From sequence record NC_028847.1: a stretch of DNA of 64,000 nt; one strand, 5' to 3'. Both the position numbers and the translations under genes were made by a program. Below the pieces are notes generated by a model, which saw only the letters and a program-made list of their open reading frames with translations, made no database searches and had not been told where the DNA came from. Positions 3,404 through 57,266 of this stretch are shown here, piece after piece. Every line of letters begins with the position of its first letter. Positions within the stretch are counted from its first letter, which is position 1. The stretch comes from Escherichia phage QL01.

Positions 3404-4422
3404 CGTGTAACCTCATTATAAAGTTGTGCGGTCATAGTCTTAAGGGCTTTAACATCGTCTTCAGTGTGGCCATCAGGAAGGGCATCGATATAATCATACA
3501 TCATATCCAAGAGGGACTTAACTTCATCTTCCTCTTCAGAATCATCGATATCAACACTGTTATCTACCTTAGACACAATACGTAAAGAGTGAACAACCTT
3601 TTCAAGTTCAGATTCGAACTTGGTAAGCCCGTCATCAATTTTATCGACTATAACACGAACCGCAATATTTGTAAAATCTTTGTAATCGATAGTCGCATTC
3701 GGATAATGAATCTTACGATGCCAACAAGTTTCATTGATGATGAAATCCATTTTATGGGTTTCTGTATCGAAAATCCAGAAGCCACGAGGGTCGTTCTCAT
3801 CACCTGCAGTCAGGGTCCATGGCGTACCAATATACTTGACGTTTGCTGCATCAGAAATGGTGTGGAAGTGACCAGACCATACTTGCTTATACTTCTTAAG
3901 GAAATCAGGTTCTAAACCATGTGATTTCATTCCTTTATAGAAATAGAAACCATTTAATTCCCAGTGGCCAATACAGAAATCGGCAGTAGTATTTTTGATA
4001 TGGTCCATGATATCAGTCGTGTTTTCTTCACACATCCATGGAATCAAATCAATTTCTGTACCATCAAAGTTAACCGTAGTAGGTTTCTCAATAACCTTGA
4101 TATGGTCGTATTTACCCAGAACTTCAGAAGCAGCGTTCGGTGTCAAGGTATTTTTGTAGTGTGCATCATGGTTACCAACAACAGTATACATGGTAATGCC
4201 ATTTTCTTTAAGCAAATCTGAAATATGTCTGGCAAATTCCATGCACTTATGAGTAATTGCTTTACGAACATCAAAAATATCACCATACTGAATCCAGACA
4301 GTGATACCATTTGCTTTAGAATAATTGATGGCGTCTTTAATGCCTGCCAATTGAATATTTTGCACCCAAGGGTCGTCGTTCTTCACTCCAAGGTGCCAGT
4401 CACCCGTATTAAGAATTTTCAT
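3400..4422 (-). CDS. 47: recombination endonuclease subunit gp47 (Mre11/SbcD-like phosphoesterase)
   Basis: Begins MKILNTGDWHLG (phosphoesterase motif I), GNHD motif downstream; ~340 aa; start taken at internal Met of ORF 3400..4494. Confidence 0.9.
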   Translation of the reverse strand: MKILNTGDWHLGVKNDDPWVQNIQLAGIKDAINYSKANGITVWIQYGDIFDVRKAITHKCMEFARHISDLLKENGITMYTVVGNHDAHYKNTLTPNAASEVLGKYDHIKVIEKPTTVNFDGTEIDLIPWMCEENTTDIMDHIKNTTADFCIGHWELNGFYFYKGMKSHGLEPDFLKKYKQVWSGHFHTISDAANVKYIGTPWTLTAGDENDPRGFWIFDTETHKMDFIINETCWHRKIHYPNATIDYKDFTNIAVRVIVDKIDDGLTKFESELEKVVHSLRIVSKVDNSVDIDDSEEEDEVKSLLDMMYDYIDALPDGHTEDDVKALKTMTAQLYNEVTR

Positions 4423-5026
4423 TACGTATCCGTTCCCACATTTTGGAGGCTGCTTTAGAAGCAGAGCCAGGAAGTTTACCTTTGACCCACCCATCAGGAA
4501 TATTAGATGGGTTAATCAGTTTATGTTCTATTCCGTTATTATACCACTTCCTGCCCTTATTATGACTAGATGCTTTATAATTAGGTGAACGACCTTCTAC
4601 ATATCCTTCGGGGACTGTAGGTGCAAAGGTTTGTTCTAATGTAATAGGATTATAGGAATGAATATACCCTTTAGCATTATGAGAGCCGTAAAGAGGGTGT
4701 TGCTCTTTAGGTAGCGAAAGCCCAAAGAATCCTTTAGGAGCTGCGACAGCCCTATTAAAGAATAGAGGATTTTGGGCCGCATTGGTTCTTAACTGGTACA
4801 TTCTTTCAGCTTCTAAAGCCTCTTCTCTTGTAGGGTGTTCACTTACAATACATGAGTCAAATAATTCTGGATGCTCTAAAAGCTCATTTTTATAGATTTC
4901 TTTATATGCTTTAGAAAGGACACTCCCGTGATATCCTTTTAAATGCTTCTCTAAAGTGGTAGACCCTATATAAAACGGTGGAAGCTTAGTCCCGGAATAT
5001 ATTGTCAGGTATGTGATGTATTTCAT
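4409..5026 (-). CDS. GIY-YIG family homing endonuclease (Seg-like), free-standing
   Basis: N-terminal YLTIYSG...PPFYIGST resembles GIY-YIG catalytic motif; C-terminal basic NNGIEHKLINPSNIPDGWVKG typical of homing-endonuclease DNA-binding modules; overlaps gene 47 start by 14 nt. Confidence 0.65.
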   Translation of the reverse strand: MKYITYLTIYSGTKLPPFYIGSTTLEKHLKGYHGSVLSKAYKEIYKNELLEHPELFDSCIVSEHPTREEALEAERMYQLRTNAAQNPLFFNRAVAAPKGFFGLSLPKEQHPLYGSHNAKGYIHSYNPITLEQTFAPTVPEGYVEGRSPNYKASSHNKGRKWYNNGIEHKLINPSNIPDGWVKGKLPGSASKAASKMWERIRNENS

Positions 5027-5050
5027 AGATTTATTTTATCATCCGAATAT

Positions 5051-5076
5051 AAAGCAAAAAAGGAGCCTAAGCTCCT
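5051..5076 (-). terminator. putative intrinsic terminator (short stem GGAGC-loop-GCTCC followed by T-run on minus strand)
   Basis: Inverted repeat aggagc/gctcct on plus strand; A-run 5055-5060 gives U-run on minus transcript; sits between small ORF and GIY-YIG gene. Confidence 0.35.
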
Positions 5077-5240
5077 TTACCAACTAATACACCGTACAGA
5101 GGTTCGTGATTAGACCTGAACTTGATAGGCTTATAGGTAATAGTACCTTCATTTTCTGCTTTAATACGAGCGGCTTCAAATTGAAGTATCATCTCATTTT
5201 TGTCAGATTTAATCTTATCAAAATCCATCGAATTCGTCAT
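5067..5240 (-). CDS. possible 57-aa ORF (below ORF-track size cutoff); may instead be a degenerate promoter-cassette remnant
   Basis: ATG at 5240-5238 preceded by AAGAGG; open frame MTNSMDFDKIKSDKNEMILQ... to TAG at 5069-5067; contains core-like ttgataggcttatag. Confidence 0.3.
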   Translation of the reverse strand: MTNSMDFDKIKSDKNEMILQFEAARIKAENEGTITYKPIKFRSNHEPLYGVLVGKGA

Positions 5241-5482
5241 TCATACAACCTCTTAAACTTTTTCGTATTCGTCTTTCATTAGCCGCCTGTCCACGTTATC
5301 ATCGTTGCCACCATTTCTTAAGTTGATGAGAATCTACCCAAACCTTGGCTACGGGCTCAATCCGAAAAATTCCATCGGAATACTGGCCGACCATTTTATA
5401 TTCGGTTTCGGACTGCTTAATACAGATATTACCGTATGAGCGAAGTCTAAAGGCGGCTCCAATAAGAAGCCGTTTAAAGGGT

Positions 5483-5794
5483 TTATTTACTAGGGCCATT
5501 GACGATTTCCCAAATTTGTTTGCGGGTAGATTCCCACATCAATTGAACAAGTTCATCAGTAACAGGTTGACGGTAAATACCACGTAATTTAATTAAAGCG
5601 TACTTATATGCTTCAAAGTTGTTTTCAAGTACAGCGCCTTGGGCATGGAGATTTAAACGACGGATTTCACGAGCATTCTTCTTAAGAATCTTAGCCGCTT
5701 GAGAATTAGCTTCTTTAATATTGTGCTCTTCTAAACGTTGCTGGGCTTCTTCAATTTGCTCATCAGTCAATTGAGAAATGTCATGGCTTTGCAT
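5483..5794 (-). CDS. hypothetical protein
   Basis: 103-aa minus-strand ORF downstream of gene 55 cluster. Confidence 0.45.
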   Translation of the reverse strand: MQSHDISQLTDEQIEEAQQRLEEHNIKEANSQAAKILKKNAREIRRLNLHAQGAVLENNFEAYKYALIKLRGIYRQPVTDELVQLMWESTRKQIWEIVNGPSK

Positions 5795-5795
5795 A

Positions 5796-6062
5796 TTAAT
5801 CCTTTGGAGTCAATTCAATAGTGAAGTAGAAATTAGCGTTCTCAACATGATAACGGTAATCTACGTTATTGTCAGGAGAAGTGAATTCAATATTCCTGAC
5901 GTTAAGTGGGTCAATATCAATAGGAAGACCTTTAACATCCCGTAATATCAATTTAATAAAATAAGGGAGTGCTTCGAAGTCTTCCATTCCATCTAAAAGT
6001 GGAGTGATATTAATCTGATGTTCCATATAAAAAATCCAGTTCACCAACTTTAGGTTCGGCAC
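5796..6062 (-). CDS. hypothetical protein (true start probably internal; overlaps 3' end of gene 55)
   Basis: 88-aa minus-strand ORF; start uncertain. Confidence 0.35.
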
Positions 6063-6567
6063 TCTTATCAGACCCTGGTGCTTTAGTTAAAGAGGTTTCA
6101 TACTGAGTCATTTTGTCGTAGATATCTTGGATAAAGGTTTCATCTGCAATACCTACCATGTCGTCATCATTACTGTCATAGACATTATGGACGAAGTAGC
6201 TATATTTCTTTGCCATTTCTTTACGTTCTTTTTTGATACGCTGAACGAAGGCATTAAAACAAGCCATAGTGATATATGCATGTGGGTTGTCGTATTTTGT
6301 TTCGTCGAAGTTGTGAAGACCTTTAATCGAAGCTTCGATTCCATCAGCAATCATTTCTTGCTTCCAAGATTGGGTATATCCTGAGAAGTTGAAACGTTTA
6401 CTTAGTCCTTCAGCAATGAGCATAATAGCCAAGCCGATAACGTCGTTCTGGCGAACTATTTTATTAGGATCGGTATTTTCTCTGAGTTCTGTTTTCCATT
6501 GGGTGATAGCTTTCAGAAGCTCCTTATTATTTACATAGTTATTTTTAGTCAGTTTAATTTCGGTCAT
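6010..6567 (-). CDS. 55: late-transcription sigma factor gp55
   Basis: 185 aa, same length as T4 gp55; N-terminal NYVNNKELL and [45 protein letters not shown] block are T4 gp55-like. Confidence 0.88.
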
Positions 6568-6633
6568 TGTTACCTCAGATAACTCAAATCATAGGTCTAT
6601 TATATCATAGTATTTGAAGACCCTTTTAAAGCA
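6568..6633 (-). promoter_or_regulatory. candidate middle/early promoter upstream of gene 55 (MotA-box-like TGCTTTA, TACTAT/TATAAT -10 candidates)
   Basis: Minus-strand reading ...GATGCTTTAAAAGGG...TACTATGATATAAT...GAGGTAACAATG; spacing not ideal. Confidence 0.3.
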
Positions 6634-6897
6634 TCAACGGAGTAAGCAATAAGCCTGAAATACGGTTTCAAGGATTTGTGTGAACTCGGAATAAGAAATT
6701 GTATCAGTACATCCATGTTCAGACATATATCCACAAAATTCTTTAAAAAGACCTGGATATTCGCGATGGTTGTATTTGGAAATATGAGACTTCCATACTA
6801 AAGAAGTCTCACCACAAACAAACTCAACATCCATACAGTTATCTATTAAGAAAAATCCGAGACCTTCGTAGGCGAGGGTAGTGGATACAGGGGTCAT
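6634..6897 (-). CDS. hypothetical protein
   Basis: 87-aa minus-strand ORF, 4-nt overlap with upstream ORF. Confidence 0.4.
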   Translation of the reverse strand: MTPVSTTLAYEGLGFFLIDNCMDVEFVCGETSLVWKSHISKYNHREYPGLFKEFCGYMSEHGCTDTISYSEFTQILETVFQAYCLLR

Positions 6898-7160
6898 TGT
6901 AGGAATCGAGCTCCTTCTAGTGCGTCATCAAGATTATCAAACTCGTCGACATAATCAACACCGCCAACTTCGTCCTTCGCATAAAGCCAGTACTGTTTAA
7001 ATTCGTATTCGATGATGAAGTGGTCACCCTCAATCTGGAGAGCCCCATCACCATTAAATTGAACTGCATAACCGGTAAAGCGGACATCATTCAAGAGTTC
7101 TTCTTTCATAGCAATCATTTCCAAGTTTTTATCGTAATTAGAGAGTTTTATTTTAATCAT
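6894..7160 (-). CDS. hypothetical protein
   Basis: 88-aa minus-strand ORF, overlapping stop/start with neighbours. Confidence 0.4.
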   Translation of the reverse strand: MIKIKLSNYDKNLEMIAMKEELLNDVRFTGYAVQFNGDGALQIEGDHFIIEYEFKQYWLYAKDEVGGVDYVDEFDNLDDALEGARFLQ

Positions 7161-7486
7161 TTCGCTGCCTTAACAATTTTCAGGTCAACGAATTTTTTCT
7201 TACGTTGGTTTTTCATACGACGGATAGTTTTATCCGTGATTTCGCCAGGGCACCAAGCTTTGGATTCAACACCAAAGGCAGCGACATCGAATTCATCAAG
7301 GATATATTGAACCAGGATTTCACGAATACCGTTCTTACCAATTTTCTGGTCTTTAGAGTGCATGATTGGTAACAGTTCAGCAACCCATTGGTCAAGAACC
7401 TGAGGAGTTACAAAACCTGTTTTCATCAGTTCGTTTACTTTATCGAAAGCGAAAGAGTTCAGTACGTTTTTAATAGCTTGTGACAT
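7157..7486 (-). CDS. hypothetical protein, basic C-terminus (start MSQAIKNV)
   Basis: Internal Met of ORF 7157..7648 preceded by GAGGAAA; shares its RBS and first 5 codons with the gene at 13854..14696. Confidence 0.5.
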   Translation of the reverse strand: MSQAIKNVLNSFAFDKVNELMKTGFVTPQVLDQWVAELLPIMHSKDQKIGKNGIREILVQYILDEFDVAAFGVESKAWCPGEITDKTIRRMKNQRKKKFVDLKIVKAAK

Positions 7487-7556
7487 AATAATTTCCTCAG
7501 TTTTAAAGTTATAATCCGTAGGACCATTATACTCTGGTCCCAAGAGTTTGTAAACT
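7487..7556 (-). promoter_or_regulatory. T4-type early promoter cassette (GTTTAC -35, TATAAT -10) with inverted repeat GGACCA/TGGTCC flanking -10
   Basis: Plus-strand gtaaac at 7550-7555 and attata at 7526-7531, i.e. GTTTAC-18 nt-TATAAT on the minus strand. Confidence 0.5.
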
Positions 7557-7755
7557 ATTTTTGACTCATTGCACCTTTCCAGCCTTCGTACATAGATGCA
7601 GCTGAAATTAATAAAGCGCCTGAACAACTTGAATATTTGTGGTTCCAAAACCAGTTCAGAAAAACTTCGTCATCAATACCTTGGGCTATCATATTTTCAA
7701 AGAACTGACGACGAGCTTCAGCAATTCGCTGTGATAATTTAGATTCAGGATTCAT
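7555..7755 (-). CDS. hypothetical protein
   Basis: 66-aa minus-strand ORF ending at the -35 of the downstream cassette. Confidence 0.35.
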   Translation of the reverse strand: MNPESKLSQRIAEARRQFFENMIAQGIDDEVFLNWFWNHKYSSCSGALLISAASMYEGWKGAMSQK

Positions 7756-15692: not shown

Positions 15693-16673
15693 TTATTTCA
15701 GAAGTGTAACTTCAGCGATTTCGCTCCAGTCATTTTTATCGGTGGCAATGAAGTCCGCCAGATAAAGAGCTGTACGTAATGATACGTTACGAAGACGAGA
15801 TACATTAGCCTTCATCCATGCTAAAGCTTGGTAAGTCTCGGCATCAGTCAGACCACGGTTTTGCATCATATCAGTGGACAGGATAACGTCTTCAACACGA
15901 ACCATAATCTCTTCGTTCGAGTGAACTCCGAGGTCTAAGTAAACTGAACGCGATACTAAAGCCTGGAGGTGTGGAGCAAGTTTAGTTCCACGCTCTAATT
16001 CACGGTCAATATCAACGTTGGTGATGAACACGATGGTGCCTTCATACTCAAATTCTTTATCGATATTTTTATCATCAAGATAAGAACTTGAAGTGCTCCA
16101 GCACACCTTACGTTTTTCACCAGTATCCAATGCTGCTTTTAACAGGTTCAGGATATCCATATCAGAGAATACATCAACATCATCAATAAGAAGAACACTA
16201 TTAGGGCCGCGGTTATTCCAAAGCTGCTCGTAAAGACCGATTCCACTAATCTTTCCGTTGATTGATTTATATTCGATAGTTTCATTTTCGTGGGCATTCT
16301 GTAATGCTTTATCCAAAGAATATGTTTTACCAATACCTGCGGCACCAGAGATGATAAGGGAACGAATTTTACCATCGATGATTCCATTAGTCATCATGTT
16401 CATTACTTTAAAACGTTTGTTAATGCGATGTTTCATTTCTTCAGCGGATTCAGTAACAACTGCAGGAGCTTCAGCACCTTCCATTTCAACGTCACATTTG
16501 AACACCCATACACCACGTTCAACACCATCAATCTGTACAAATACCTTACCATCACCGAGGTGAGCTTCGGATTCATGAATTTTATTAGGGAACCAGGTTT
16601 TACCTGAACTCATGAACGTACCGGAGATTACATTACCGCGATAGATACCTTTGTTGATTTTGATAGTTAACAT
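15693..16673 (-). CDS. P-loop NTPase (Walker A GAAGIGKT, Walker B LLIDDVD), function unknown
   Basis: Start set at MLTIKINKG (internal Met of ORF 15693..16817) preceded by GGAGAA SD and promoter cassette. Confidence 0.55.
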   Translation of the reverse strand: MLTIKINKGIYRGNVISGTFMSSGKTWFPNKIHESEAHLGDGKVFVQIDGVERGVWVFKCDVEMEGAEAPAVVTESAEEMKHRINKRFKVMNMMTNGIIDGKIRSLIISGAAGIGKTYSLDKALQNAHENETIEYKSINGKISGIGLYEQLWNNRGPNSVLLIDDVDVFSDMDILNLLKAALDTGEKRKVCWSTSSSYLDDKNIDKEFEYEGTIVFITNVDIDRELERGTKLAPHLQALVSRSVYLDLGVHSNEEIMVRVEDVILSTDMMQNRGLTDAETYQALAWMKANVSRLRNVSLRTALYLADFIATDKNDWSEIAEVTLLK

Positions 16674-16739
16674 TATATTCTCCATTTCACTCAGTAGATT
16701 TGATAGGTCCATAATAACATGCTCTACGAAGGTGTAAAC
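16674..16739 (-). promoter_or_regulatory. PeSL-like early promoter cassette (core variant ttgataggtccataataaca)
   Basis: gtaaac 16734-16739; minus strand GTTTAC-17 nt-TATTAT; SD GGAGAA. Confidence 0.5.
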
Positions 16740-16754
16740 TCTTTTTTGCACTAA

Positions 16755-16780
16755 ACCCAAAAAAGGAACCCGAAGGTTCC
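16755..16780 (-). terminator. intrinsic terminator, GGAACC-UUCG-GGUUCC hairpin plus U-run
   Basis: Plus-strand aaaaaaggaacccgaaggttcc; perfect 6-bp stem, tetraloop, 6 U on minus transcript. Confidence 0.6.
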
Positions 16781-16968
16781 TAAATTGCGCTCCAAAAATT
16801 ATGGAAGCGTATATCATTTATAGCCCAGTTAACAAATTGTCTTGTCTGTTTAGGCGTAGGTTTGCACACGTACTTGATATTGACTCGACGTCCGGTTTCT
16901 TTACAGACAGCTTCAAGATACCAACGTCGGGTTTTATGGGGTCTTCCATATGATAAAAAGACCTTCAT
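16780..16968 (-). CDS. small basic protein (start MKVFLSYGRPHK; ORF track extends to 17022)
   Basis: 62 aa, K/R-rich; begins 7 nt after the stop of the upstream nucleotidyltransferase-like gene. Confidence 0.4.
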   Translation of the reverse strand: MKVFLSYGRPHKTRRWYLEAVCKETGRRVNIKYVCKPTPKQTRQFVNWAINDIRFHNFWSAI

Positions 16969-16975
16969 TTCTTCG

Positions 16976-17986
16976 TTATCGATAATAAGAGTTGTGGTTG
17001 TCAAGGTATACCTCTTCAACAAACTTGTCCCAGAACTTCATATCTACCTTAGCAGGCATACCGTTCTTAGATGCCTGGATGGCCAGGACTTCAACCAGGT
17101 CAACAGTGTCTTCAAGAAGTTCTTGGACCTCTTTAAATGGAAGTTCACCGGCCTTAATCAGCTTAATGATAGAGGCTTCGCGCAATGGGAATACCAGGTC
17201 GCCTGTTTGGTAGATTTCCAACAATTGATATCCAGCCCGATAAGCATGGCTCAGAGCTTTCCAATCGATACCTTCATTAGCTTCAGCCTTACGAGCACGT
17301 TCGCCATATTCAGCATCAAGCTTATTCAGAGATTGCTTGAGCTCGATTAAAGACAAAGTAGTTTGGTACTTACGTCCTAGAACAGTATAGAACGTTTGAG
17401 GGCCTGTTTTCTCATGGTTATGGAATACCCATTCACAGAACTCATTTTCAGGGAGTCTGTGTTTGATATCTTCTACCTTAGTACGACGAAGTCTATCAGG
17501 GATTCCTTCTTGATAGTCAACCCACTGTTCAGGAATCTGGTTAACGATTGCCAGTACACCACGCAGAGCAGCCAGACGAGAACCTTTAACACCATATTTA
17601 GAAGCTTGCTTACGGACGTACCCTAAATAGGCTTTCATGTTGGTTGTATAGAACCGTGAACGATTGTCTTGGATAAATTTCCATACATCAGGTAAATCAG
17701 ATTTAACCACCATTTCAGGTGGAGTGTGGAGCATATCCAGAGCAACGGTTTCGCCTTCAGCAGCCAGTTTAAAGAAATATTTCAGACTGTAAAGCTCGTG
17801 GTCAACATCATCTTTAGTGTTTTTGGAAGCAGTGTTATTCGTATTCAGGTTGGTATGGTTCATAGCCGTACCTAACAGAATATCACGCGGATGTGGAACA
17901 AAGATTTCTTTAAAATCAACATCAGATTCTGGAGTACTTGTTCCATAAAGGTGGCTACCGAAGTAGCCTTTCATAACTGTTCTCAT
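16976..17986 (-). CDS. nucleotidyltransferase-fold protein (Pol-beta superfamily motif GS-x11-DVD at residues 10-25)
   Basis: N-terminal GSHLYGTSTPESDVDF, further acidic DDVDHE; 336 aa; ATGA overlap with upstream membrane-protein gene. Confidence 0.5.
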   Translation of the reverse strand: MRTVMKGYFGSHLYGTSTPESDVDFKEIFVPHPRDILLGTAMNHTNLNTNNTASKNTKDDVDHELYSLKYFFKLAAEGETVALDMLHTPPEMVVKSDLPDVWKFIQDNRSRFYTTNMKAYLGYVRKQASKYGVKGSRLAALRGVLAIVNQIPEQWVDYQEGIPDRLRRTKVEDIKHRLPENEFCEWVFHNHEKTGPQTFYTVLGRKYQTTLSLIELKQSLNKLDAEYGERARKAEANEGIDWKALSHAYRAGYQLLEIYQTGDLVFPLREASIIKLIKAGELPFKEVQELLEDTVDLVEVLAIQASKNGMPAKVDMKFWDKFVEEVYLDNHNSYYR

Positions 17987-18441
17987 TCTTTGTCCTCGAA
18001 GTGGATTACCGGACAGACCTTAGATTTACGAGCTTTAATGTATTGAATAACGATATTTTCTTTAGTTTCTCGGCCTTCACGCTCAGCTTGAATACGTTGC
18101 CATTCCTTTTCTTCTCTACGGGCATCATACCATGCGTGTAAATTCATCGCACCGAATGCCAAACCAATGGATAGCGCAATAATAAGAGCTATTGCAACCA
18201 ATCCTAAAACAAACCCTAGACTCAACAGAACAGGGGTACTTAATACAAAGAAATGCTCTAATACACCAACACCTGCAACAGTTAATCCAAAAAGCGTACT
18301 ACCTGCAACAACAGCACAAGCAAAACAAGCCCAAACCATTTTCCAGAAGTAAGCACATAAAGAGTGCGGTCGAGAATGACTGTCATAAAAACGGTCATGA
18401 AGTTTAGCGTGCCAAGAGTTTGCATTGATAATCATAATCAT
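17983..18441 (-). CDS. hypothetical integral membrane protein (3-4 predicted TM segments)
   Basis: 152 aa with long hydrophobic runs; SD AAGGAAA; stop overlaps start of the nucleotidyltransferase-like gene. Confidence 0.5.
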   Translation of the reverse strand: MIMIINANSWHAKLHDRFYDSHSRPHSLCAYFWKMVWACFACAVVAGSTLFGLTVAGVGVLEHFFVLSTPVLLSLGFVLGLVAIALIIALSIGLAFGAMNLHAWYDARREEKEWQRIQAEREGRETKENIVIQYIKARKSKVCPVIHFEDKE

Positions 18442-18451
18442 AATATTTTCC

Positions 18452-19012
18452 TTAAGAGTTCATAGTTGGGATAACAGAGTTCAGATAAGAGACTAAAACT
18501 TTTAGTTCGTCTTTAGTAAATACCACTTCACTTTCACCATCGTGTCTTTGGGTCAAGGATAACAAATCACGGCCCTGATGTTGATACACGGTTAATTCAG
18601 TATCATAATTCAGTTCTTCTTCATCACCTTCAAAGGTTTCACTAGAACGAATCACGGCATCTTGGCCAGGGACTTTCCATTCAACTTCCGGCTTGCATTC
18701 TTCCTGGAACAGTTTGAAAATACAATCAAAGAATTTATCAGAATCGCTGATGCTCAGACATTCAATACCATTTTCCAGATTAAACCCGGTTTCATTTTTA
18801 TAGATATAGGCAAACATATCATCATTGATATCGATAGGAGCACTAGCCCGACCGTTAAGATAATCGTGTCTATCTAAAACCATTAAATCATAAAGCGGTT
18901 TAATATCAGCGATAGTCAGTACGATTTTATCGTCTTCTTGTGAAAGCTCAATTGCGTTATTAACTACTTCAGCGGACAGTTCGCCAAACAATTCAGTTGT
19001 TTCAATAATCAT
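18452..19012 (-). CDS. hypothetical acidic protein
   Basis: 186-aa ORF rich in D/E; stop embedded in SD of next gene. Confidence 0.45.
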   Translation of the reverse strand: MIIETTELFGELSAEVVNNAIELSQEDDKIVLTIADIKPLYDLMVLDRHDYLNGRASAPIDINDDMFAYIYKNETGFNLENGIECLSISDSDKFFDCIFKLFQEECKPEVEWKVPGQDAVIRSSETFEGDEEELNYDTELTVYQHQGRDLLSLTQRHDGESEVVFTKDELKVLVSYLNSVIPTMNS

Positions 19013-19022
19013 TTTCTATTCC

Positions 19023-19220
19023 TCAACGGTTATGTTTTAAAATACTATAAAGCTCTTCGACTTGGTCTGCATTCAGACAAATCATATCATTTTCTTGTTG
19101 GAGCGTGATTCCACCTTTTTCTTCCCAATCTTTAACAAAGACGTCATCGTCAGATTCTTCAACATCTGCTAAAAGGGCAATCACACCATCTTCAGAACAA
19201 CCATTTGGATCGTATAACAT
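19023..19220 (-). CDS. hypothetical acidic protein
   Basis: 65-aa ORF. Confidence 0.4.
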   Translation of the reverse strand: MLYDPNGCSEDGVIALLADVEESDDDVFVKDWEEKGGITLQQENDMICLNADQVEELYSILKHNR

Positions 19221-36857: not shown

Positions 36858-36932
36858 TGGTATCCCGCCCTGGGATCGAACCAGGACCGCAAACTTAGAA
36901 GGATCGTATGCTATCCATTACACCAGCGGGAC
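36858..36932 (-). tRNA. tRNA-Arg (anticodon TCT), CCA encoded
   Basis: Minus strand GTCCCGC...anticodon loop CTTCTAA...T-arm CCTGG-TTCGATC-CCAGG...GCGGGAT-A-CCA; 7-bp acceptor stem with one G-U. Confidence 0.8.
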
Positions 36933-36937
36933 GTAGT

Positions 36938-37014
36938 TGGTGACCCAGACCAGATTTGAACTGGTAACCTTTCCCTTATGAGGGGACTGCTGCTAACCAT
37001 TGAGCTACAGGGCC
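36938..37014 (-). tRNA. tRNA with CAT anticodon (Met or lysidine-type Ile), CCA encoded
   Basis: Minus strand GGCCCTG TAGCTCAATGG...anticodon loop CTCATAA...T-arm ACCAG-TTCAAAT-CTGGT...CTGGGTC-A-CCA; one U-U mismatch in acceptor stem. Confidence 0.7.
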
Positions 37015-55075: not shown

Positions 55076-55740
55076 TGACTTTAACTGAAATGAAAAGCGG
55101 GCTAAAATCCCGCTTAGCCGATTATTTGGAATTATCTTACACTAGTGACAAGCCTACTGCTGTCGCTGACCAACGTCCTATCGGTGGTCCTTCTGCAAAC
55201 CAAACTCAGAAGGGTGTTTATTTTCCTACGGTCCAAAGTGCAATAGATGATATTGCATTTAGAACAGAGCTTCCTGTGAACTCTGTTATTATTACCACAG
55301 AAAACAGAGCACCTGGATTTATCCAGCAATCTGATAAAATTACATTTACCGGTTCTATTTCTTCAGGCGGTGAACTTGGCGACCCGGTTATTATTAAAGT
55401 GTTCGGACTTCCTGTAGAGGTCTTAGTTGGCGATTCATCTGTATTGGTTGCATCTAAAGTAAATGATGTGTTTTTAGACGCTATTGCTAATAGCTATATT
55501 TTAGCCGAAACTGCTATTGATGCCTTAGACCAATCTACCTTGAATATTAAATACAATGACTATCAGAATCATATTTTTTCACCATATAAACAATCGGGTT
55601 GTACAATTTCCCATACTATAGTCCAACAGCCAAGGGCTGGATACGGTAAGTGGGAATACTTAGGTAACTCTACCCAATCGTTAGCAGGTGGTACAGTTAA
55701 CGGCACGATTCCTTTATATTACTATAAGAGATTATATTAA
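55075..55740 (+). CDS. 11: baseplate wedge protein gp11 (short-tail-fiber attachment)
   Basis: 221 aa; synteny. Confidence 0.88.
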   Translation: MTLTEMKSGLKSRLADYLELSYTSDKPTAVADQRPIGGPSANQTQKGVYFPTVQSAIDDIAFRTELPVNSVIITTENRAPGFIQQSDKITFTGSISSGGELGDPVIIKVFGLPVEVLVGDSSVLVASKVNDVFLDAIANSYILAETAIDALDQSTLNIKYNDYQNHIFSPYKQSGCTISHTIVQQPRAGYGKWEYLGNSTQSLAGGTVNGTIPLYYYKRLY

Positions 55741-57266
55741 TGTCAACAAACACACTAAAACACATTAGTGATAAATCGGAATTCAAATCATTCGACCCTA
55801 CTGGGTCGAATTTCCCGCCTGATATTACTAATGTTCAAGAAGCATTGGCAACTATTTCATTAATCGGCGTCACAGGTAATGTTCCTTCAGCTACAGAAAC
55901 GTCCCAAGGCATTATTCGTCTTGCCACAACACAAGAAGTAATGGATGGTCTGGATGCTTATAGTGCAGTGACACCGGCAACTTTAAAAGCCCGTTTAGAT
56001 ATTCCTACTCAGGCAACAGAAACTTATGTAGGTATCACCCGTTATGCTACTAACGCTGAAGCTATAGCAGGCACAGAGCCCCAGGCTGCAATCGTAGCAA
56101 CTTCTTTGAAAGCGGTAATGGATTATACATTTGAGAACCGTTTATCAACAGAGAACGCCACAGGCGTTATCAAGATTTCAACTACACCTGCCGCATTAGC
56201 TGGTACCGATGATACCACAGCAATGACCCCACTTAAAGTATCTCAGGCAATTGGTGCAGCGACGGCCGCGTTACCGGTTTATTCTACAGCAACGACTACA
56301 AATGAAGGTTTAGTTCGTTTAGCGACCAATGCAGAGGTTGGTAATGGAAGTCTTTCGGTAGGTATCGCTATTTCTCCGGCAGGATTAGCCACATTAACTT
56401 CCACCGAAGAACGAAGCGGTATTATTAAACTCGCAGGTTGGGATATGGTATCTAATGGTACCGACCATACCGCCGCAGTTACACCGGCTTCTTTGTTAGC
56501 TCGTACAGGTAATACTGGACGTATTGGGTTGGTTCGTTTATCTACTACTGTAGGCCAAGGCGATGGTAATACGGCGCTGGCTTATAATGCTAACGTTATT
56601 TCTACTTCAGGCGGCGAAATATGGGGTACTTTAAACGTTAATGGAGCATTACGTCGTAATGGTGTTGATGTTGTTACCCATGACCAATTATCAGATAGCG
56701 TTCCGGTGGGTACTATTTGCATGTGGGGTGGCAATGAAGGTAATATACCTGGTAAATGGCGTGCTTGTGTAGGTGGGACTTACACTGGTGGTGCATATTT
56801 AAATGCTGTTGGTGGGCGTTGGGGATGGTGGGGTGCTATTCCAGATTTCCGTGGATTATATCCTCGTGGCGCTAACATGGTCGGTGGATATTCTGAAGGC
56901 GAAGTTAACCCGCATATTGCCGGTAACCGAGGAGAAGACGGTAAAGGTAAAGCCCGTTTAGGTAATGGTGTTGGTTCTTTCCCGCAATCTTCCGTTCAAG
57001 CCCAAGCATTACGTTATCATAAACATGCTGGTGGTTTTGGTGAACATGATAACTATGGCGCTTTTGGTAACACCGCTAACTCCGGATATGTTGGTACTCG
57101 TAAAGGCCTTGACTGGGATAACCGTAGTTATTATACCAACGAAGGTTTTGAGACCACCGATCCTTGGAACCGTGATGGACATACCACATTGAATAGTGAA
57201 GGTCTTATTGCCAACGAAACACGTCCATGGACAATGTCCGTTCTTTTTATTATTAAAGTAGAATAA
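55740..57266 (+). CDS. 12: short tail fiber protein gp12
   Basis: 508 aa; N-terminal ...FDPTGSNFPPDIT... and C-terminal ...HKHAGGFGEHDNYGAFGNT...GLDWDNRSY...NETRPW... blocks T4 gp12-like. Confidence 0.93.
   Translation: MSTNTLKHISDKSEFKSFDPTGSNFPPDITNVQEALATISLIGVTGNVPSATETSQGIIRLATTQEVMDGLDAYSAVTPATLKARLDIPTQATETYVGITRYATNAEAIAGTEPQAAIVATSLKAVMDYTFENRLSTENATGVIKISTTPAALAGTDDTTAMTPLKVSQAIGAATAALPVYSTATTTNEGLVRLATNAEVGNGSLSVGIAISPAGLATLTSTEERSGIIKLAGWDMVSNGTDHTAAVTPASLLARTGNTGRIGLVRLSTTVGQGDGNTALAYNANVISTSGGEIWGTLNVNGALRRNGVDVVTHDQLSDSVPVGTICMWGGNEGNIPGKWRACVGGTYTGGAYLNAVGGRWGWWGAIPDFRGLYPRGANMVGGYSEGEVNPHIAGNRGEDGKGKARLGNGVGSFPQSSVQAQALRYHKHAGGFGEHDNYGAFGNTANSGYVGTRKGLDWDNRSYYTNEGFETTDPWNRDGHTTLNSEGLIANETRPWTMSVLFIIKVE

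Follow-up and report, generated by a model that had tools for sequence, protein, structure and literature searches.

A long-form RlaP-family nucleotidyltransferase in Escherichia phage QL01, orthologous to T4 NrdC.11, with a probable role in RNA-end repair

Escherichia phage QL01 carries, within the 64,000-nucleotide (nt) stretch analysed here (NC_028847.1; hereafter the window), a minus-strand gene for a 336-amino-acid (aa) nucleotidyltransferase that is the orthologue of phage T4 nrdC.11. An earlier note, made from the letters of this DNA, had described open reading frames (ORFs) of 186, 152, 336 and 62 aa, an ATGA overlap between two of them and a terminator, all of which are present on the minus strand in the following arrangement.

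15693-16673, minus strand: nrdC.10 orthologue, a 326-aa P-loop/AAA-type ATPase (phrog_1250)
16711-16738, minus strand: sigma-70-like promoter, TTTACA-16-TGnTATTAT, only a 10/12 consensus match, placed to drive nrdC.10
16754-16781, minus strand: terminator-like hairpin AGGAACC-TTCG-GGTTCCT with a T-run (7-bp stem, TTCG loop), closing the nrdC.11 unit
16780-16968, minus strand: basic 62-aa protein (Pfam DUF7279, phrog_8921), encoded 7 nt beyond the end of nrdC.11 as the final gene ahead of the terminator
16976-17986, minus strand: nrdC.11 orthologue, a 336-aa long, 'NrdC.11-type' RlaP-family (PF10127) nucleotidyltransferase with the N-terminus MRTVMKGYFGSHLYGTSTPESDVDF
17983-18441, minus strand: 152-aa membrane protein (phrog_944), in the slot held by the homing endonuclease gene mobD in T4
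18452-19012, minus strand: mobD.1 orthologue, an acidic 186-aa protein with Pfam T4_y05I_N and T4_y05I_C ('putative transcription factor')
19023-19220, minus strand: 65-aa DUF7189 protein, the first gene of a tightly packed run with 10-nt gaps

The operon is ordered DUF7189, mobD.1, membrane protein, nrdC.11, DUF7279, terminator. The TGA of the 152-aa gene and the ATG of the nucleotidyltransferase gene share the sequence ATGA, and a GAGGA Shine-Dalgarno sequence lies 6 nt upstream of that ATG. The 186-aa protein has an isoelectric point (pI) of 4.1, and the 62-aa protein, with 13 lysine and arginine residues, a pI of 10.5. Directly after the stop codon of the 62-aa gene stands the GC-rich hairpin (read from 16781 to 16754), the sole terminator-like site between 15500 and 19500.

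The window is that of a Dhakavirus. A 3.7-kb region around the gene shares 99.3% identity with Escherichia phage LQ5, 98.3% with the RefSeq Dhakavirus IME281, and 90-95% with Bp7, IME08, WG01 and other JS98-like T-even phages; the annotation in Bp7 and IME281 reads nrdC.10, nrdC.11 ('nucleotidyltransferase'), 'membrane protein' and mobD.1. Because the 336-aa protein aligns gaplessly with T4 NrdC.11 (NP_049709) over all 336 residues at 81% identity, and because the nrdC.10 / nrdC.11 / mobD.1 synteny is kept, we conclude that the gene is the Dhakavirus orthologue of T4 nrdC.11. The downstream ATPase is likewise 76% identical to T4 NrdC.10. The T4 order is nrdC.10 - nrdC.11 - mobD - mobD.1, with nrdC.11 at 55435-56445, and the two phages share the protein length of 336 aa, nrdC.10 downstream and mobD.1 upstream on the same strand, and the location in the nrdC-tk early region. 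They differ at the 5' end of nrdC.11, which in T4 is abutted and overlapped by mobD, an HNH homing endonuclease gene, and here by the membrane-protein gene. Neither the membrane gene nor the 62-aa gene was found in 14.5 kb of the T4 region (best hidden Markov model (HMM) E-values 0.25 and 0.47). The earlier note had not recognised the cassette from T4, a view that does not hold, since T4 also has NrdC.10, NrdC.11 and MobD.1, in this very order, and lacks only the membrane and 62-aa genes. In T4, mobD fills the membrane-gene slot (PMC2988022), and in the mobD-less T-even phages RB27 (Tequatrovirus) and HX01 (Mosigvirus) a homologous membrane gene of 153-157 aa abuts nrdC.11. Homologues of NrdC.11 occur in 1548 phage records.

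Two side observations concern this gene and its surroundings. The HNH homing-endonuclease gene that overlaps the 5' end of nrdC.11 differs between T4 (mobD) and RB16 (RB16p123), yet the overlap is exactly 17 nt in both (in T4, 56429-56445), and extra insertions are present in the 3.7-kb region of the Dhakavirus relatives E33, IME341 and C6; the 5' junction of nrdC.11 looks like a recurrent homing site. Separately, many GenBank and UniRef entries call NrdC.11 homologues 'thioredoxin', and one 'HNH homing endonuclease'. The 'thioredoxin' label is evidently inherited from the gene name nrdC, the proteins being PF10127 nucleotidyltransferases.

The 336-aa protein is a Pol-beta-superfamily nucleotidyltransferase (NTase) of the RlaP branch, in its long form. 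The superfamily call, which the earlier note had made from the motif, is borne out by a match to Pfam RlaP together with an AlphaFold2 (AF2) model whose best matches in the PDB are all NTase-fold proteins. The RlaP match (PF10127) scores 45.5 bits against a gathering cut-off of 23 (E 1e-11), with residues 8-135 covering profile positions 25-143 of 249, and in PHROGs the protein belongs to phrog_388, 'nucleotidyltransferase' (442 bits, E 2e-132). All 120 of the close homologues listed carry PF10127. The family comprises 3315 clusters at 50% identity with E <= 1e-3, 840 of them with E <= 1e-30, and the best-scoring clusters listed are mostly full-length, at ~310-350 aa.

When 41 sequences with identities as low as 34% are aligned, G10, G15, S21, D22, D24, P31, D60, Y123, Y131, R230, K243, H247, R250 and P267 are invariant, and S11, D62 and D84 are kept in at least 90% of the alignment. 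The GS...DxD motif reported earlier is present, with its spacing corrected from x11 to x10 (G10 S11 ... D22 V D24), which lies inside the canonical range of x9-13 between GS and DxD. The third acidic residue of the Pol-beta signature is also present, with D60 just before and D62 on a predicted strand at 61-67, and this stretch lines up with the invariant Asp region of the short RlaPs. Given the RlaP and PHROG scores and the invariant residues, the motif is not a chance match.

Other NTase families gave a different picture. No CD-NTase/SMODS, AbiEii or KNTase_C profile matched the 336-aa protein in Pfam, PADLOC or NCBIfam, and PADLOC and NCBIfam returned nothing meaningful for any of the five proteins scanned. 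NTP_transf_2 scored 14.9 bits against a threshold of 21 and MntA 15.2 against 60, both over only 17-18 residues at the motif. We therefore rejected membership in the CD-NTases, for which no CD-NTase/SMODS profile or PADLOC match was found; in the minimal nucleotidyltransferases (MNT), given the sub-threshold NTP_transf_2 and MntA scores and the finding of no HEPN toxin partner among the five other profile-scanned genes of the run; and in AbiEii/DUF1814, for which there was no Pfam or PADLOC match. Membership in the KNTase/ANT aminoglycoside NTases was not borne out either. The fold comparison proposed in the earlier note returned an NTase fold, and by profile the subfamily is RlaP and none of the four that the note had named for comparison (CD-NTase, MNT, AbiEii and KNTase).

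The AF2 model, which has a predicted local distance difference test (pLDDT) score of 90, begins with an NTase domain and ends in a helical bundle, with a predicted five-stranded, beta-rich insert (~150-210) between them. The sequence of this insert is weakly conserved and its length varies from member to member; it could serve the long form as a module of its own for recognising substrates. Canonical short RlaPs, at ~250-270 aa, cover all 249 positions of the Pfam model, whereas NrdC.11-type proteins are ~310-350 aa and match its first ~140 positions only. Consistent with this, hhalign aligned the long form with the canonical short RlaP over residues 4-137 (probability 92%, E 6e-7), and the comparison shows the NrdC.11-type long form to be a distinct subfamily. 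Searches of PDB sequences with the protein, a long-form profile and a short-RlaP profile returned noise only; the PDB set compared includes no PF10127 structure, the PfRlaP crystal structure included.

We examined the gene context of bacterial and archaeal homologues by scanning one genome per prokaryotic species, which yielded 131 loci with full-length relatives; the best 80 of these 131 (30-52% identity) were kept, and their neighbours were clustered and representatives checked against Pfam. The 80 loci come from Desulfobacterales, Nitrospirota, Alphaproteobacteria and others. Near the long form, RtcB was found in 9 of the 80 loci, RtcA in two and TROVE/Ro60 in four. A canonical short RlaP was present in 25/80, mostly in tandem and directly downstream of the long form; these tandem short forms are ~255-270 aa and match the full Pfam RlaP model at 175-272 bits. 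One Nitrosospira locus (L040, with the RlaP tandem region at 3709-7743) brings these elements together in the order Ro60 - x - RtcB - RtcA - long RlaP - short RlaP. The NrdC.11-type subfamily, besides the Pseudomonas type, therefore lives in bacterial RNA-repair operons, and a role in RNA repair is supported because the bacterial full-length homologues adjoin RtcB, RtcA, Ro60 and a second, short RlaP.

This context agrees with what has been proposed and measured for the family. RlaP owes its name, given by Burroughs and Aravind, to an association with RNA ligases (as summarised in PMC7824862), and its predicted role is to refill, ahead of ligation, nucleotides that damaged RNA ends have lost, such as the wobble base cut out by RloC (PMC7824862). 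In a December 2025 preprint (PMC12776372), the RlaPs of P. fluorescens (PfRlaP) and P. aeruginosa (PaRlaP) added one or two nucleoside monophosphates (NMPs), or dNMPs, to RNA 3'-OH ends, with a preference for Mn2+ or Co2+. According to the same study (PMC12776372), they favoured the 5' half of a cleaved-tRNA mimic, did not act on DNA or proteins, E. coli proteins remaining unlabelled, and partly rescued the aminoacylation of a tRNA missing one anticodon-loop nucleotide. Both enzymes also labelled many E. coli RNAs with any NTP, including rRNA-sized and full-length tRNA species (PMC12776372).

From the characterised family members and the gene context we infer, with a probability of roughly 0.55, that NrdC.11 may add 1-2 nt to RNA 3'-OH ends so that the phage Pnk and Rnl1 reseal tRNAs cut by base-excising nucleases. 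It would act as a metal-dependent, template-independent enzyme, with D22/D24 and D60/D62 providing catalysis, and would extend the 3'-OH of damaged RNA by one or two NMPs. Its substrate would probably be the tRNA halves that remain when host anticodon nucleases of the RloC type cut and also remove a nucleotide; from these the phage Pnk (pseT) and RNA ligase 1 (rnlA), whose genes lie elsewhere in the genome, could reseal a full-length tRNA. IME281, 98.3% identical over the region, encodes RnlA and PseT ~85 kb from nrdC.11.

Several observations weigh against this assignment. The RlaP biochemistry comes from PfRlaP and PaRlaP only, both of the short form, so that the activity of the long form is proposed by analogy. 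The C-terminal half, comprising the insert and the helical bundle with the invariant R230, K243, H247 and R250, is specific to the long form, and substrate or product could differ from those of canonical RlaP because this half is unique to it. The two forms co-occur frequently and are homologous only over residues 4-137, and are probably not interchangeable; this suggests that they do different jobs, complementary and non-redundant, a division of labour that the current RlaP model and the literature consulted do not address. In phages the gene does not stand beside RNA-ligase genes: among 78 viral loci with an NrdC.11 homologue, inspected over 6 kb on each side of the gene, RtcB was found in one and a short RlaP in none. 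The nearest solved structure by fold search is HalB (PDB 9dbh), a DNA-synthesising NTase, at 15% identity. T4 NrdC.11 itself was placed in cluster 5 of a PF10127 sequence similarity network and called 'of unknown function' (PMC12776372). Finally, a T4 deletion from nrdC.11 to mobD.3 is viable in the laboratory (PMC9825161), which fits a conditional counter-defence gene and equally any accessory role.

The 152-aa protein encoded upstream has a continuous hydrophobic block at about residues 28-104. Its AF2 model, built from close homologues only, is of low confidence (pLDDT 60) and has long helices at 28-64 and 69-121; the multi-pass hydrophobic character described earlier is retained, and two or three membrane helices appear more likely, on this model, than the three or four then proposed. 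No Pfam family above threshold and no PADLOC match was found for it, and a word-indexed protein search returned 67 near-identical Dhakavirus-type sequences with no Pfam domains. Wider relatives, found by tblastn and a home-made HMM, share an N-terminal MxINxNSWH...P..LC.YFW motif and a C-terminal YLKARKxKVCP motif flanking the long hydrophobic hairpin, with W10-H11, P25, C29 and Y31 and a C-terminal K-A-x3-K-x-C invariant in phrog_944. Homologues lie upstream of nrdC.11 in HX01, RB27, Klebsiella phages and Acinetobacter phages.

Across the 78 viral loci, this membrane family is encoded upstream on the same strand in 41 and was not found within 6 kb in the other 37, the more distant phages. The gene overlaps or abuts the NTase gene in ~10 loci (Dhakavirus, Mosigvirus and some Tequatrovirus), and in ~31 of the 41 it is followed by 300-2600 nt of other genes before the NTase gene. 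Starting from the membrane family instead, 5 of 20 loci had no NTase within 4 kb, and in two Aeromonas-phage contigs (L144/L190, L148/L191) the two genes lie ~70-150 kb apart. Next to the bacterial homologues, co-directional neighbours with transmembrane-like segments were no commoner than the background of 0.17, numbering 3/37 on the upstream side and 3/46 on the downstream side. The membrane protein is a non-obligate, loosely linked neighbour. Because its gene is often separated, lost or unlinked, and because the T4 region has none, the ATGA overlap is best described as the tight packing of T-even genes, specific to the lineage, rather than as the mark of a conserved two-component module, although translational coupling of the membrane gene and nrdC.11 is possible. 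The likeness to signalling or toxin modules that the earlier note had drawn from the NTase-membrane pair is not supported, the subfamily being RlaP, the membrane gene being often separate, and membrane neighbours not being enriched next to bacterial homologues. As a separate observation, members of the membrane family are also found with no NTase gene nearby, 230-kb Aeromonas phages being one instance.

The gene on the other side is the more faithful neighbour of nrdC.11. In each of the 12 viral loci that yielded a DUF7279 gene, only 4-8 nt separate its start from the nrdC.11 stop, and the 62-aa protein is 61% identical to the product of a Klebsiella-phage gene in the matching position. This linkage may reflect shared ancestry, all 12 loci being related Tevenvirinae. 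In RefSeq IME281 the ORF is unannotated, leaving a 303-nt gap between nrdC.11 and nrdC.10.

Further downstream, NrdC.10 follows nrdC.11 in 32 of the 78 viral loci, Acinetobacter phages included. A NrdC.10-NrdC.11 module was set aside as conserved synteny, given the terminator and promoter between the genes and a spacing that varies from 21 to 2268 nt; no NrdC.10-like family recurred in the neighbour clusters of the bacterial homologues, among which no search aimed at NrdC.10 was made. The maximal nrdC.10 ORF is 374 aa (15693-16817, minus strand) and spans the promoter-like site, the terminator and the end of the 62-aa gene. Because the T4 alignment, the PHROG match and the RefSeq annotation (IME281: 981 nt) agree on it, the true start is probably M49 (ATG at 16673, with a GGAG Shine-Dalgarno sequence), giving 326 aa. 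Pfam AAA_14 and AAA_22 match NrdC.10 below threshold only. Elsewhere in the window, two adjacent phage tRNA genes, tRNA-Arg(TCT) and tRNA-Met(CAT), lie at 36858-37014 on the minus strand, with CCA encoded genomically in both.

We weighed RNA-end repair after anticodon-nuclease damage against other roles for NrdC.11. The enzyme could tail or mend RNA 3' ends more generally and independently of such damage, by repairing tRNA CCA ends, priming ligation or tagging transcripts of host or phage so as to alter their stability. PfRlaP and PaRlaP label many E. coli RNAs with any NTP (PMC12776372), the phage has tRNA genes of its own, and the extra domain of the long form could confer another RNA specificity. 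We nevertheless regard this role as rather unlikely, as characterised RlaPs prefer the cleaved-tRNA mimic, the bacterial long form is found in RtcB/RtcA/Ro60 repair operons and not with CCA or poly(A) machinery, and both tRNAs in the window already encode CCA. A non-RNA acceptor is more doubtful still. Here NrdC.11 would nucleotidylylate a small molecule, as KNTase/ANT/Lnu-like enzymes do, or AMPylate a protein in the manner of an MNT-like antitoxin, neutralising for example a host toxin or an antibiotic-like compound; the profile matches that would point this way stay below their thresholds (14.9 versus 21 bits and 15.2 versus 60) and cover 17 motif residues only, profile scans found no HEPN or toxin partner in the operon, and RlaP enzymes left E. 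coli proteins unlabelled.

The structural match to HalB and the gene overlap are all that suggested a Hailong-like or anti-Hailong system, in which NrdC.11 would make an oligonucleotide (such as oligo-dA) that gates the adjacent membrane protein or, as a decoy, holds the host HalA channel shut. Nothing in sequence links NrdC.11 to HalB, PDB profile searches being empty and PADLOC negative for both proteins, and HalB may be a mere nearest proxy, as the PDB set compared is without PF10127. Nor is the pair obligate: T4 nrdC.11 has no membrane gene in its 14.5-kb region, the two genes stand 300-2600 nt apart in ~31 of 41 loci and 70-150 kb apart in the two Aeromonas-phage contigs, and bacterial homologues have RtcB, RtcA and Ro60 beside them without an excess of membrane neighbours. 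Characterised RlaPs, moreover, use no DNA acceptor and stop after 1-2 nt, and we consider such a system scarcely credible. Only slightly less improbable is a broader proposal, which draws on HalB as the closest solved relative, on the family-specific C-terminal half and on the tightly linked small partners, that the long NrdC.11-type RlaP, more than a redundant filler of RNA ends, forms together with the membrane protein and DUF7279 a counter-defence device making or restoring a specific (oligo)nucleotide, for instance as a decoy for Hailong-type guards or by putting back, in a templated manner, the wobble base that RloC takes out.

Databases and the literature already cover the gene, its family and its annotation, and a cassette of this kind is usual in the early region of T4-like phages. 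The remaining interest is in the biological role of NrdC.11, a conserved T4 gene, and in the tandem of long and short RlaPs in bacteria. The December 2025 RlaP biochemistry makes the hypothesis that a nucleotide lost to RloC is restored before Pnk and Rnl1 act directly testable in T4, the best phage genetic system.

Among known systems, NrdC.11 shares with the Pseudomonas RlaPs the Pfam family, an NTase core with GS...DxD and the third Asp strand, and, for both types, the occurrence in bacterial RtcB/RtcA operons; it differs in being longer and having its own C-terminal half, and its activity is predicted by analogy with theirs. Its layout of an N-terminal NTase and a C-terminal helical domain is that of KNTase/ANT(4'), LinB and PDB 3c18. 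HalB (9dbh), in contrast, is a 217-aa enzyme that makes protein-primed poly-dA with an obligate HalA partner, whereas the pairing here is facultative and there is no profile-level relation. In function, the proposed likeness is to T4 Pnk-Rnl1 versus PrrC, in which the phage heals and seals tRNA cut by host anticodon nucleases, and T4 and IME281 alike encode RnlA and PseT. NrdC.11 is not a proven component of that pathway; its contribution would be a step of nucleotide restoration, required only where the nuclease is of the RloC type and also excises a base.

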